IMG/VR virus record: IMGVR_UViG_3300006033_000021
DNA length: 20,000 nucleotides
Strand: one strand, 5' to 3'
DNA from: an uncultured virus (IMG/VR IMGVR_UViG_3300006033_000021)
Taxonomy: Duplodnaviria; Heunggongvirae; Uroviricota; Caudoviricetes
Positions 1,849 to 13,331 of this stretch are shown here, piece after piece. A model generated the notes under the pieces. The model had not been told where the DNA came from and did no database searches. It worked only from the letters and a program-made list of their open reading frames with translations. A program made the translations under genes and the position numbers. Each line of letters starts with the position of its first letter. Positions within the stretch are counted from its first letter, which is position 1.

Positions 1849-2310
1849 ATGGACCTATTGAGGATAGTTTTAGCTAACATGCGCACACTTGAACAAGATC
1901 TGTATTCAATTGTGCCTGCTATTGTGGCGAGCGCGCAAGCGGCTTATAATAAGCATGATTTGTTGCCTGAGGATATCGAGGATTTGGCGGGTGGTGGTAT
2001 CTGTGATGATATCGCAGAAGCCATCGCAGAAGCCATTAATGAAGCTTTATTTTCGGGTGACTCAGATGTAGACGTTGAAGCTAAAACTGTTCATCATATG
2101 GACGAAAACCATACATTGGTATATGTTCGAAGGATACAGCAAAACGGTGGAGTCGAAGTGGTTATGGTTGATATTCCATACCATATCTATGAGACACAAA
2201 GGGGGTATTATCAGTATGATATTACTCCAAATGTGGTTTTCGAGCCAAATAATGTGCTAATCAATACTATTGATATCTCCTCCGAGGATTTTGACGCTTT
2301 AGACGAGTAG
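1849..2310 (+). CDS. acidic hypothetical protein with a possible Cys-His-Asp (papain/transglutaminase-like) triad
   Basis: 153 aa; GGGICDDIA ... ENHT ... VDIPY spacing. The functional hint is weak. Confidence 0.7.
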   Translation: MDLLRIVLANMRTLEQDLYSIVPAIVASAQAAYNKHDLLPEDIEDLAGGGICDDIAEAIAEAINEALFSGDSDVDVEAKTVHHMDENHTLVYVRRIQQNGGVEVVMVDIPYHIYETQRGYYQYDITPNVVFEPNNVLINTIDISSEDFDALDE

Positions 2311-2316
2311 TATAAT
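2291..2316 (+). promoter_or_regulatory. possible promoter of the Pth2 module
   Basis: Perfect TATAAT 2311-2316 followed by AGAG, similar to the other promoters here. TTGACG at 2291-2296 is only 14 nt away, which is non-canonical. Confidence 0.4.
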
Positions 2317-2334
2317 AGAGCTAGGAGAATAAGA

Positions 2335-2664
2335 ATGCGCAGATATTAGGACCAACACTTCTACGTACTGGTAAGGGATGACCTTCCCATTCCTCAACAA
2401 GCTGTTCAGGCAATTCACGCCGCTCACGAAGCAGCTTTACACTTAGTCGAACCTCCCCCTAAGATTGCATCATTGGTACTATGTTCTGTGCCAGATGAAG
2501 ATGCTTTACTTCGGGCTGAGCATGTCCTTAATATGAAGGGCGTGCGTAGCATTGTCTTTTATGAACCCGATATGGGTAATATCCCTACTGCTCTGGCTAC
2601 AGAGTATGTGACGGGTTCCACTCGTAAGTTGTTTAGTAAATATCCACTATGGGGAAAGGAGTAA
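2335..2664 (+). CDS. Pth2-family (peptidyl-tRNA hydrolase II-like) protein with in-frame TAG at codon 5 (2347-2349)
   Basis: AGGAG 2323-2327, ATG 2335. Translation MRRY*DQHFYVLVRDDLPIPQQAVQAIHAAHEA...SLVLCSVPDEDALL...GVRSIVFYEPDMGNIPTALATE...RKLFSKYPLW matches the Pth2-fold pattern VRxDL..Q..HA / EPD..TALA. 109 codons if read through. Confidence 0.8.
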
Positions 2665-2667
2665 ACC

Positions 2668-2709
2668 ATGTTGTAGGGCACGGTAGAACGCGCGCCTCCC
2701 ATTGGCTAA
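2668..2709 (+). CDS. amber-interrupted leader peptide ML*GTVERAPPIG (putative ribosome-arrest peptide)
   Basis: AGGAG 2657-2661, ATG 2668, TAG 2674-2676, CGC GCG CCT CCC (RAPP) 2689-2700, TAA 2707-2709. Confidence 0.7.
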
Positions 2710-2744
2710 CTAAATCGGTATGTTGCCCTTTTGCCAATGGAGAG
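2696..2744 (+). promoter_or_regulatory. RBS-sequestering hairpin (translational attenuator)
   Basis: CCATTGGC 2699-2706 is complementary to GCCAATGG 2733-2740, extendable by CTC/GAG; it covers the GGAG SD (2739-2742) of ATG 2750. Confidence 0.65.
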
Positions 2745-2749
2745 ATACA

Positions 2750-3118
2750 ATGTTAACTGAATATATCATCGACCGTTTAACCAAGATTCGTCAGCGTATC
2801 AAGGCTTGTGCTTACTATGTGACTAACCAGGAGCATTGCAAGCCTGAAGATTATGATGAGATCATTAAGACAATCAGCCCATATAGCCGTAGTTGTGAAT
2901 ACTATATGACTGCCTTGTTGAATCTACACCATAAGATTCGTGGTCATACTGAAAGTTATCACGACTATAAGCCAGCTAAGGATGGTTCTCATGATGGGCG
3001 ACAAAACTATGTGAGTAGCCTTCAGTATGCGCTCATGAAAGAACTCGACATTACCAAGGAGATGCTCGATATGATCGCTGCAAATGTCGAGGAATATCAA
3101 GCGCAGAAAGTTGCGTAA
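2750..3118 (+). CDS. hypothetical protein downstream of the RAPP leader
   Basis: GGAG SD 7 nt before ATG 2750 (preferred over 2720); 122 aa. Confidence 0.8.
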   Translation: MLTEYIIDRLTKIRQRIKACAYYVTNQEHCKPEDYDEIIKTISPYSRSCEYYMTALLNLHHKIRGHTESYHDYKPAKDGSHDGRQNYVSSLQYALMKELDITKEMLDMIAANVEEYQAQKVA

Positions 3119-3129
3119 TATTGCGCAAT

Positions 3130-3162
3130 GGGGCGGTGGGGGGGATGATTCTCCACCGCCCC
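3130..3162 (+). terminator. GC-rich hairpin closing the Pth2 module
   Basis: GGGGCGGTGGGGG 3130-3142 pairs with TCTCCACCGCCCC 3150-3162; no U-tract. Confidence 0.55.
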
Positions 3163-3212
3163 GAATACAGGAATTTTGAACCATAAGGCCGAATGAGATA
3201 TTGGAGGCTATG

Positions 3213-3620
3213 ATGCGATACTTACTAAAGTGCTTGACAGTTATAGTGCTATTGGCTACTCCTCTTTTTGGGCAATCGCTCAATGATCCTAATGTAACAG
3301 CTACAGCTAAAGGGCAATGTGTTGTTATTCCTCTTAGATATGCAGATGCACCAGCGTTGGCAATGCTATTCGCCAATTCTCAGTGTCAGGGGATGCCATT
3401 GAGATATCAGATGTTAATGATGATGTCTGGTGGTTTTGGTAATCAGGGCGGCATGGGCGGCGGCAATCAAAATCGCTACGGTGGCGGTATGGGTGGCTGG
3501 GGCAACCAGGGTGGCGGTATGGGCTACGGTGGCGGTATGGGCGGTTTTGGTAACCAGGGTGGCTACGGTGGTGGTCCGCGCGGCTATCAAGGCGGCTTTG
3601 GTCGTAACCGGAGAAATTAG
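3213..3620 (+). CDS. secreted protein: signal peptide, secretin-N (NolW-like) fragment and Gly-rich tail
   Basis: GGAGG RBS 3203-3207; signal-like N-terminus MRYLLKCLTVIVLLATPLFG; VVIPLRYADAPALAMLF motif; GGFGNQGG repeats. Confidence 0.7.
   Translation: MRYLLKCLTVIVLLATPLFGQSLNDPNVTATAKGQCVVIPLRYADAPALAMLFANSQCQGMPLRYQMLMMMSGGFGNQGGMGGGNQNRYGGGMGGWGNQGGGMGYGGGMGGFGNQGGYGGGPRGYQGGFGRNRRN
3428..3603 (+). repeat. imperfect coding tandem repeats (GG[F/W]GNQGG, YGGGMG)
   Basis: Repeated ggtggcggtatggg and aaccagggtggc units. Confidence 0.8.
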
Positions 3621-3850: not shown

Positions 3851-3884
3851 CTTGAAATGAAAAATGGGTACTTTTCATTTCAAG
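3851..3884 (+). promoter_or_regulatory. 13-bp perfect hairpin just upstream of an RBS
   Basis: CTTGAAATGAAAA 3851-3863 / TTTTCATTTCAAG 3872-3884. Confidence 0.6.
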
Positions 3885-4243: not shown

Positions 4244-5131
4244 ATGGCATTTACGACAATCACACCGGGGACACTACCCGTCGTCAACGTGAGTGGGGAT
4301 ACATTGCCCGAAGTATGGGAGGCAGCACTAGTTGCTGTATGGGACCATGGGGCGGCTATTCCCACTCAATACGACAAGCCCGGTGATCCACCTAGCAAAG
4401 ATGCTACAGCCATCTTAACTATCCACCATCCTCTACAAGAGCCCCGTATTCACCTCGCATTCCCAGGCGGTATAGCGGATCTAGAGATCTATCGCCAAGA
4501 AGTCGTAGATGGTATTCACGATCATTGGATTGATCCCAAAGCCGGCAAGTGGGAGTATACCTATCACGAGCGATTGTTTGATTACAAGGTTTTGGTAAAG
4601 CAAGATGCTGGGACGGTTTTTGAATGCCGGCCTATAAAGCATATCAATCAGATCCAATACGTAATTGACGCTTTAGTAGAAGCCCCTCATACACGCAGAG
4701 CCCAAGCTATTACTTGGAAACCGTGGGAGGATTGTGGTATTAGCGATCCCGCATGTCTCCAGTCATTATGGTTCCGTATATTTGATGATGAATTGGTAAT
4801 GAATGTTAGAATGAGATCTAATGATCTATTTAAGGCTACATTCATGAATCTTTATGCCTTTATAGATTTGCAAAGATTGGTGGCTGAAAAAGTATCAGAA
4901 AAGCTTGGTAGAGAAATCCGTGTTGGTCAGGTTAATCACCAAGTTGATTCTATGCATATCTACGGGTCTTATTATCAAGAGGTTGAGCGTTTCCTTGACA
5001 CAATGAAGAATAAAACCTTCAGTCAGAGGACTTGGAATGCTTGTGATTACGCTGATGTCTTTGAAGAGGCTAAGGCTGATATCAAAAAGTCTCTAGAAGA
5101 AGAAAAGCGCACAGGCAGAAAAGGAGTCTAG
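4244..5131 (+). CDS. thyA: thymidylate synthase family protein
   Basis: YTYHERL, TRRAQ, catalytic DPACLQ, MRSND, FMN (Asn associated with dUMP preference) and SMHIY motifs. Confidence 0.9.
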   Translation: MAFTTITPGTLPVVNVSGDTLPEVWEAALVAVWDHGAAIPTQYDKPGDPPSKDATAILTIHHPLQEPRIHLAFPGGIADLEIYRQEVVDGIHDHWIDPKAGKWEYTYHERLFDYKVLVKQDAGTVFECRPIKHINQIQYVIDALVEAPHTRRAQAITWKPWEDCGISDPACLQSLWFRIFDDELVMNVRMRSNDLFKATFMNLYAFIDLQRLVAEKVSEKLGREIRVGQVNHQVDSMHIYGSYYQEVERFLDTMKNKTFSQRTWNACDYADVFEEAKADIKKSLEEEKRTGRKGV

Positions 5132-7030: not shown

Positions 7031-7036
7031 CTATTT

Positions 7037-7123
7037 GGAGGGTTGCGAGAATCTGGTAATCGGCTCGGCTCGAACCCGAAGGCCCAGGTAACACTGGTGA
7101 AAGTTCAAATCTTTTGCCCTCCG
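7037..7123 (+). tRNA. tRNA-Ser(CGA)
   Basis: Acceptor GGAGGGT/GCCCTCC plus G73, anticodon loop CTCGAAC, long variable arm CCAG-GTAACA-CTGG, T loop TTCAAAT; no CCA. Confidence 0.9.
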
Positions 7124-7151
7124 TTGTTAGTCTTATAGATGAGGTATAGTA

Positions 7152-12913: not shown

Positions 12914-12987
12914 GGCCGGGTAGCCCAATTGGTAGAGGCAACAGATTCAAGTCCTGTAAAGTATGGGTTCGAATCCCATCCCGGCTA
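12914..12987 (+). tRNA. tRNA-Leu(CAA), short variable loop
   Basis: GGCCGGG/CCCGGCT plus A73, loop TTCAAGT, T arm ATGGG-TTCGAAT-CCCAT. Confidence 0.85.
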
Positions 12988-13012
12988 TAGTATACGAGAA
13001 ACAGAATACCCT

Positions 13013-13086
13013 GCCTGGGTAGACCAATTGGTAGAGTCAATAGTCTTAGGAACTATGTAGTATGGGTCCGAATCCCATCCCAGGTA
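13013..13086 (+). tRNA. tRNA-Leu(TAG), short variable loop
   Basis: GCCTGGG/CCCAGGT plus A73, ATAGT-CTTAGGA-ACTAT, T loop TCCGAAT (non-canonical). Confidence 0.85.
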
Positions 13087-13331
13087 TTAACACCAACCAC
13101 AAGGAGTACGTAACAGGCAGTGATTATCGGACCATTCAATGGCTTTAGCACCTTAGCTCTGTTGATCACATCTAAGGTCGAGTCAAGCTATAAGAGCTAC
13201 GAAGAGTACCGTTGATATCCAATCATCTCTTAGGAAGAAGCCTCGACGGAGGAAAAGGTCTAGACCGGATGATTGGCTCTACAGCGTGTGGATGCGACAT
13301 CTTATAGCAGCCTGTTGTGGTTGGTGTTAAT
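13086..13331 (+). ncRNA. unassigned ~245-nt structured RNA
   Basis: Perfect 17-bp closing stem (13086-13102/13315-13331) with nested helices; the ORF track shows no ORF here. Confidence 0.7.

Follow-up and report, generated by a model that had tools for sequence, protein, structure and literature searches.

Can the reading of a stop codon switch on a phage gene? The question is raised by a locus in the DNA of an uncultured virus of the class Caudoviricetes (IMG/VR record IMGVR_UViG_3300006033_000021). We analysed a stretch of 20,000 nucleotides (nt) of its 78-kb contig, called the window here. The window is a phage-like run of small, tightly packed + strand genes and uses the standard code. 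Between an amber-gated gene for a PTH2-fold protein (2335-2664) and the gene for a helical protein (2750-3118, gene X) it contains a leader mini-open reading frame (mini-ORF) of 13 codons. The third codon of this leader is the stop codon TAG, called the gate below. We propose that the leader senses suppression of stop codons, unmasks the Shine-Dalgarno sequence (SD) of gene X and controls its translation. On the sequences and their comparison we put the probability of this reading at about 0.62. Gene X would then probably be switched on only in the presence of an active tRNA that reads the stop codon.

The leader and the hairpin over the SD of gene X

The element and the gene that it would regulate contain the following features.

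2656..2661, + strand: SD of the leader (AAGGAG), 6 nt 5' of ATG 2668, inside the last codons of the upstream gene
2668..2709, + strand: leader mini-ORF, consisting of ATG, TTG, the gate TAG (2674-2676), four codons, RAPP (2689-2700), two codons and TAA
2696..2706, + strand: 5' arm of the SD-masking hairpin, which starts inside the first Pro codon and ends one base before the leader stop
2733..2744, + strand: 3' arm of the SD-masking hairpin, which holds the entire SD GGAGAG (2739-2744) of ATG 2750
2750..3118, + strand: gene X ("family X"), a 122-residue helical protein and the proposed regulated gene

The whole regulatory element is about 85 nt long. A preliminary description, made from the sequence alone, had reported the mini-ORF ML*GTVERAPPIG* (asterisks mark stop codons), and its coordinates and translation are exact on re-reading. 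The ATG is at 2668-2670, and the terminal TAA is at 2707-2709. The codons behind the gate are GGC ACG GTA GAA CGC GCG CCT CCC ATT GGC. The RAPP codons lie two codons ahead of the leader stop, which puts the R-A/G-P-P core of this small upstream ORF close to its C-terminus. The strong SD for ATG 2668 was absent from the preliminary description. With this SD, ATG TTG TAG also fits the sequence pattern of a two-codon minigene of the lambda bar type. Such minigenes consist of an SD, AUG, one sense codon and a stop, and they act through peptidyl-tRNA drop-off. The frame behind the gate is conserved in related loci, so the leader appears to be more than a minigene of this kind.

The hairpin arms first described (2699-2706 and 2733-2740) are inverted repeats of each other over 8 bp without a mismatch and enclose a loop of 26 nt. 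The minimum-energy fold widens them to 2696-2706 and 2733-2744, with 11 pairs and A2741 bulged. The folding energy is -18.8 kcal/mol for 2695-2745. The 3' arm had been claimed to overlap the SD of ATG 2750; with the arms widened, the entire SD GGAGAG is paired in this predicted fold. By prediction, the stall site also overlaps one arm of the SD-sequestering stem, as in known arrest-peptide leaders.

The strength of this fold depends on the segment that is cut out. Its z-score is -0.49 for 2650-2770 and -1.8 to -2.2 for 2665/2690-2752; trimming to the exact ends of the hairpin gives -3.9. As a duplex, the 20-nt stall segment and the SD segment reach -18.8 kcal/mol, a value matched by 0 of 1,178 other 20-nt segments in the first 6 kb. 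Exact 8-mer hairpin pairs are frequent in the window (52, versus 11 in shuffles). A perfect 13-bp hairpin at 3851-3884 encloses ATG 3857 of the next-but-two gene, which is another stem-hidden start.

The window by itself proves little, and the weight rests on the related loci. RAPP occurs twice in the six-frame translation of the window, where 0.36 is expected; at least one occurrence is found in 30% of 200 shuffles. No match to 2300-3200 was retrieved from the phage collection by blastn. With the window sequences as query, neither flanking protein retrieved a relative from viral contigs. The gene X protein (P0011) retrieved none from metagenome contigs, and a word-seeded protein search with it matched only the protein itself. 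None of the related loci shares the leader DNA or other genes of the window. The possibility that the spacer is a degenerate suppressor tRNA was ruled out: Rfam on 2200-3300 at E <= 10 gave only chance-level rows, and ARAGORN gave none.

The leader class in related loci

Ninety-seven loci were fetched through the PTH2-like gene. Seventeen were from viral contigs, and 80 (of 129 matches) were from metagenome contigs. These loci and the window were scanned for mini-ORFs of the form SD-ATG-(up to 6 codons)-TAG-(1-19 codons)-stop. The gene strand contained 32 distinct stop-gated mini-ORFs. Pro-Pro was present behind the gate in 16 of them, and 11 ended in Pro-Pro followed directly by the stop. On the opposite strand, which served as a control, Pro-Pro was present in 1 of 17 mini-ORFs. 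With mock gates (TAC, TAT, CAG, TGG, AAG and GAG) on both strands, it was present in 5 of 308.

The scan, cases with a longer tail or a GTG start and two hold-out loci together gave 26 leaders. Their common plan is an SD, a start, 1-7 codons, TAG or TGA, 3-6 codons and Pro-Pro. Thirteen end directly after Pro-Pro. About 20 distinct sequence types are present among the 26, judged by eye. Most of the related leaders are 8-30 codons long, and that of locus L038 continues in frame into gene X. The position of the stop gate is kept across diverged leaders, as in suppressor-gated phage genes. Examples are given below.

Window: ML*GTVERAPPIG*
L020: ML*TVRAPP*
L032: MLNVFL*GGRAPPHLAF...
L028: MTGFT*VSTRGPP*
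L042 (TGA gate): MT*VARGPP*
L098: MRDT*SRGPP*

The motif in the gated frame is R[AG]PP in 19 leaders, KPP in 5, HPP in 1 and KDPP in 1. The Arg of the 19 R[AG]PP leaders is encoded by CGC (9), CGT (6), AGG (2), CGG (1) and AGA (1). The second residue of the motif is spelled by six different Gly or Ala codons. These synonymous spellings imply that selection acts on the peptide, in a frame that ribosomes enter only by reading through the gate, and the comparison thus points to the R[AG]PP peptide as what is selected. The base directly behind the gate is a purine in 24 of the 26 leaders. For the 14 window genes that end in TAG, the next base is T in 7 and a purine in 5.

For 20 loci, the minimum-energy folds of the stretch between the gate and the X start were compared. 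At least three of the four nucleotides of the SD core were paired in 16. The partner of the SD was located between -3 and +16 nt relative to the first Pro codon in 15 loci and was the Pro-Pro codons themselves in 13. In L039 and L030 the SD pairs with the Pro-Pro codons despite 165 and 175 nt between the gate and the X start. In the duplex test against all other 20-nt segments of the same locus, the true segment beat 99% in 10 of the 20 loci and 95% in 12. The exceptions are mostly KPP leaders, in which the 5' arm starts just past the stop, plus the RGPP loci L022, L036 and L040. As to covariation across homologues, the arm sequences vary by locus, yet pairing of the stall site with the SD recurs. 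On these predicted folds, the hairpin is conserved by design, not by sequence.

The hold-out loci L098 and L099 were found through X alone. Both contain a PTH2-like gene, a gated RGPP leader, X and a tRNA with the anticodon CTA. With the gate, the in-frame R[AG]PP and the predicted SD pairing all recurring in distant phages, the gated-arrest reading of the preliminary description appears to hold beyond the window.

L099 also has a tRNA-like stretch between the gated leader and X (1394-1469), which ARAGORN calls tRNA-Cys with the anticodon GCA. A similar stretch was seen by eye at about 1385-1470 of L098; it received no ARAGORN call.

Suppressor tRNAs and the code in use

The gates of the related loci fit the tRNAs that the loci encode. 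A tRNA with the anticodon CTA was present within 20 of the 32 loci with a TAG-gated PTH2-like gene, and one with the anticodon TCA within 2 of the 3 loci with a TGA-gated one. Gate codon and suppressor anticodon are never crossed; TAG goes with CTA, and TGA goes with TCA. The TGA-gated leaders (L005, L042 and L045) are in loci with a TGA-gated PTH2-like gene, and two of the three (L042 and L045) encode the TCA tRNA. This match places the phage lineage of the window among phages that gate one gene with a stop codon and would read it with a suppressor tRNA of their own.

Genome-wide recoding of TAG was considered and ruled out. Among the 44 + strand genes marked in the window, 16 end in TAA, 14 in TGA and 14 in TAG, and ORF cover is barely changed when TAG is treated as sense. 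Only one long gene of the window shows the SD-ATG-TAG pattern without a nearby start. The related loci likewise appear not to be recoded overall.

The window encodes four tRNAs, with the anticodons CGA, CAA, TAG and TCT. Two of these, at 12914-12987 and 13012-13087, are paralogues of 74 and 76 nt with the leucine anticodons CAA and TAG and without a long variable arm. A contig of a diverged relative (sequencing run X2) skips 12916-13088. The 89-nt tRNA-Ser at 7036-7124 (anticodon CGA) was called by ARAGORN and was unreported by the Rfam tRNA model at E <= 1.

The upstream PTH2-fold gene

The gene upstream of the leader is gated in the same manner.

2323..2327, + strand: SD (AGGAG) of the amber-gated PTH2-like gene, 7 nt ahead of ATG 2335
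2335..2664, + strand: PTH2-fold gene with a good SD and ATG and an in-frame TAG at codon 5 (2347-2349)

It contains no ATG, GTG or TTG for 41 codons past its TAG, and its homologues start exactly at the residues behind this TAG. The model of the protein has a predicted local distance difference test score (pLDDT) of 91.8. The top 12 Foldseek matches at E <= 0.001 are all of the Pth2 type, with query-normalised template modelling (TM) scores of 0.68-0.80 and a probability of 1.00. They are archaeal and eukaryotic chains and include AF2095, MJ0051, PH1539, Bit1, TA0108 and Pth2 of S. solfataricus. The predicted fold of the product is PTH2. The Pfam search of the protein at E <= 0.01 gave no family, and its PHROG matches are to families of unknown function only.

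An early stop behind the start is present in at least 35 of the 41 non-redundant relatives with an alignable N-terminus. It is TAG in 32 and TGA in 3. The gated relatives open with an SD, a start, 0-8 codons and the stop. In 19 of the 32 TAG-gated genes an in-frame ATG, GTG or TTG is close behind the gate, and an internal start is therefore possible for those.

The genes at 1369-1815, 1849-2310 and 2335-2664 share one frame and are parted by TAG codons and short stop-free spacers; with TAG as sense they form a single frame of 431 codons. In twelve related loci (L041, L044, L047, L048, L053, L055, L057, L067, L071, L076, L079 and L094) an alternative conserved gene stands behind the PTH2-like gene. 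Its product starts like SRWGFHPCDYE, followed by KLKRLHK..YW, and it may be a second partner family.

Gene X and neighbouring features

Family X contains 32 ORFs, all beside a PTH2-like gene, and was assembled from the ORFs of the loci in repeated rounds of profile searching. A profile built from the other 24 X proteins, without that of the window, gave a single match among the 101 window ORFs of at least 50 residues. This was the ORF at 2720..3118 (E = 1.1e-5), and it was matched with E = 6.6e-5 when the two closest members were left out of the profile. A wider profile search with alignment A4 gave two new loci, L098 and L099, and one with alignment A5 gave nothing further.

A gated Pro-Pro leader is directly 5' of X in 19 of 25 X genes (alignment A2). 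In L001, L002, L024 and L064, X is leaderless and overlaps the end of the gated PTH2-like gene; through this overlap it could be coupled to translation of that gene. L003 encodes an ungated in-frame RGPP in an N-terminal extension of X (2803-3165), from a GTG that overlaps the PTH2-like stop. L049 contains a TAG-gated mini-ORF without Pro-Pro ahead of X. The gene order differs in L013 and L016, where the leader and X are upstream of the PTH2-like gene and the leader stays with X.

The members of family X are diverged small helical proteins with two conserved helices. The model of the gene X protein has four helices and a pLDDT of 86. No Pfam family is common to the members. Nothing matched the protein among PDB sequences at E <= 0.1 or its model in Foldseek at E <= 0.001. 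VIA gave a top Z of 5.6, which is within the generic helical range, and Atlas matches are at most 0.76.

One further feature follows gene X.

3130..3162, + strand: G+C-rich hairpin with a 10-bp inverted repeat, possibly the end of the transcription unit; unscored as a terminator by terminator prediction

Elsewhere in the window, genes for an HD-domain phosphohydrolase (172-789) and a diverged thymidylate synthase (4244-5131) represent ordinary phage nucleotide metabolism.

Proposed mechanism

Ribosomes would initiate at ATG 2668 through its strong SD. Without an amber-reading tRNA they would terminate at TAG 2674-2676, about 20 nt short of the hairpin. A ribosome that ends at the gate would reach only to about 2686-2690 and then leave. 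The stem 2696-2706 / 2733-2744 would remain intact, the SD of ATG 2750 would be paired, and gene X would be off.

If UAG is read through, the ribosome would stall at Arg-Ala-Pro-Pro. Its P site would then hold the first Pro codon (2695-2697) and its A site the second. The available text of PMC7897499 gives the same placement for the stall of ApdA and ApdP. It also reports that reverse transcription is halted by a stalled ribosome 15-17 nt 3' of the first base of the codon in the P site. In the leader, the stalled ribosome would cover the mRNA to about 2710-2712, including the whole 5' arm. The SD of ATG 2750 would be freed, and other ribosomes could initiate on gene X. A long-lived stall would prolong the open state, so that even rare read-through could give a strong signal. 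RAPP and RGPP cause robust arrest that is unrelieved by EF-P and occurs with varied N-terminal sequences, as far as the available text of PMC12992588 describes it.

The stall would cover the 5' arm and termination would fall short of it, so the simplest reading is that X is translated only upon read-through. Read-through, stalling and the gene-on direction are steps that we infer. An attractive idea is that the stall may end by drop-off of the short peptidyl-tRNA and its hydrolysis by the PTH2-like protein. A broader proposal joins the suppressor tRNA, the gated PTH2-fold protein, the gated R[AG]PP leader and X in a single, self-contained unit that would control the decoding switch of the phage. 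The leader would measure stop reading, the PTH2-like enzyme would resolve the stalled complex and its very short nascent chain through release and hydrolysis of peptidyl-tRNA, and X would be the effector, for example on termination or on the switch from early to late genes. This broader proposal is doubtful at present.

Alternative explanations

Several observations weigh against a suppression-sensing leader. The window leader is far shorter than the arrest peptides that have been tested (ApdA, 128 residues; ApdP, 140 residues) and has no release domain. In ApdA and ApdP, 5-10 residues ahead of RAP also aid arrest, according to the available text of PMC7897499. The leader of the window has no sequence relative, and its membership in the class comes from its design and from a weak but specific profile match of gene X. 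Neither ARAGORN nor Rfam found a suppressor tRNA in the 20-kb window of the 78-kb contig. TAG is an ordinary terminator for 14 of the 44 genes marked in the window. Back-up stops are present behind 5 of 14 TAG, 6 of 14 TGA and 6 of 16 TAA codons, with no excess at TAG. Among the related loci, the SD is poorly paired in 4 of 20 folds, and the duplex is no better than 95% of the background in 8 of 20. Common descent through one gene family links the loci and makes them less than fully independent; the counts therefore overstate independence. The Pro-Pro codons are mostly CCT CCN, which is anti-SD-like, and the Pro-Pro signal could partly reflect selection on the RNA.

Read-through could also act without true arrest. 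Translation across the 5' arm to 2707-2709 would open the hairpin, and R[AG]PP would merely pause the ribosome. Consistent with this, 7 of the 26 leaders contain KPP, HPP or KDPP instead of R[AG]PP, slow termination after proline could suffice in the 13 that end in Pro-Pro and a stop, and the nascent chain would be far shorter than in the arrest peptides that have been tested. However, the other 19 carry exactly RAPP or RGPP, the arrest cores reported as most robust in the available text of PMC12992588. A mere Pro-Pro pause would also not need the Arg, which is retained through synonymous codons. Coupling without arrest is unlikely, with some real chance of being correct. The leader might instead serve mainly the PTH2-like enzyme or the suppressor tRNA, with control of X secondary. 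It could do so through drop-off of peptidyl-tRNA(Pro) or as a brake that ties up ribosomes at high suppression. Its start is within a few bases of the PTH2-like stop in 10 loci, and leader and gene are gated by the same stop codon. Such a role is improbable: in L013 and L016 the leader stays with X and not with the PTH2-like gene, and the structural feature that recurs is pairing with the SD of X.

The hairpin might repress X as an RNA-only anti-SD element that opens in response to temperature, a protein or another start of the transcript, with translation of the two-codon ORF ending at TAG and the RAPP frame unread. The Pro-Pro codons are mostly the anti-SD-like CCT CC, 8-bp hairpins alone are common in the window, and the start at 3857 is also in a perfect hairpin. 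An element of this kind leaves unexplained why Arg is kept, as CGN or AGR, two codons ahead of the anti-SD, why an SD-start-stop gate is present every time, a fixed short distance away, and why the gate is TGA exactly in the loci with a TCA tRNA. It is very unlikely. We give the same low weight to negative control, in which read-through and stalling would cause collisions and cleavage or decay of the mRNA, and suppression would lower X. Rescue and cleavage pathways are known to act on ribosomes that have stalled. Yet the geometry, with the stall site as the SD partner, is that of activating leaders, and the leaderless X genes that overlap a gated PTH2-like gene (L001, L002, L024 and L064) would depend positively on read-through. 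Chance arrangement in a phage spacer would agree with the unremarkable number of RAPP motifs in the six-frame translation of the 20 kb and with the weak regional fold z-score. It is contradicted by the comparative data, in which the same design recurs in 26 leaders, with controls for strand, mock gates, duplexes and tRNAs, and its probability is close to negligible.

Comparison with known systems

The leader that we propose to sense suppression resembles ApdA, ApdP and SecM (RAGP). It has the R-A/G-P-P core near the C-terminus of an upstream ORF, and a stall would disrupt an SD-hiding stem, as those systems are described in the available text of PMC7897499 and PMC12992588. RAPP and RGPP are concentrated close to the C-termini of small ORFs that precede diverse genes (PMC12992588, available text). 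The ApdA/ApdP/ApcA/SecM class differs in other respects. Its members are of roughly 100-200 residues, have signal or membrane segments, are released by the localisation machinery and act on sec/yidC or metal-related targets. In contrast, the phage leaders have 8-30 codons (13 in the window) and no signal or membrane segment, and their input would be the reading of an in-frame stop.

The antibiotic-sensing Erm leaders are likewise very short ORFs, with stall-driven remodelling of downstream RNA that turns the next gene on. In these and in the metabolite-sensing TnaC the stall needs a small molecule in the ribosome, whereas here it would need decoding of a stop ahead of the stalling motif, which works without a small molecule in the arrest peptides that have been tested. 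TnaC is similar to the phage leader as a very short leader ORF at which a stalled ribosome remodels the RNA and switches the next gene on (PMC6412442, available text).

The RF2 gene, prfB, has a natural early in-frame UGA that reports the state of termination and sets the gene's own expression. It differs in that it uses +1 frameshifting inside the regulated gene and has no separate leader, arrest motif or SD-masking hairpin. An engineered TAG in a leader peptide makes downstream expression dependent on suppression (Liu, Qi, Yanofsky and Arkin 2011, as cited in the available text of the review PMC6412442). As described there, that device is synthetic, acts on transcription by way of the tna leader and Rho, and relies on an orthogonal tRNA that carries an unnatural amino acid. 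The phage leader differs from it in being natural, translational and conserved in phages.

Recoded phages encode their own CTA or TCA tRNAs and have genes that are made only once the stop is read, and recoding has been proposed as a timer of late genes (Borges et al., bioRxiv 10.1101/2021.08.26.457843, available text). In those phages a quarter to most of the genes are interrupted by in-frame stops; the window uses the standard code, with gating limited to one gene and one leader. The available text of Borges et al. mentions no leader or arrest peptide, and the word "hydrolase" occurs 0 times. The preliminary description had stated that no arrest peptide gated by a stop was known, and we found no natural precedent in the literature searched. 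The comparison supports the view that the leader is a variant of arrest-peptide control whose input is stop-codon suppression, in a conserved phage module of suppressor tRNA, gated PTH2-like gene, gated leader and X.

Significance

Known arrest peptides sense export, antibiotics and metabolites, and the reading of a stop codon would be a new input. The leader would be the natural counterpart of a switch that synthetic biology has built by hand. It is a small, portable, sequence-defined element and could report the efficiency of suppression. For phages with suppressor tRNAs, it gives a handle on how they time and control the change in decoding. It also implicates two partner proteins in the machinery of the decoding switch, namely the helical protein X and the one with the PTH2 fold. 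If the single-controller proposal is true, the module would be a naturally occurring sensor circuit for the state of the genetic code.

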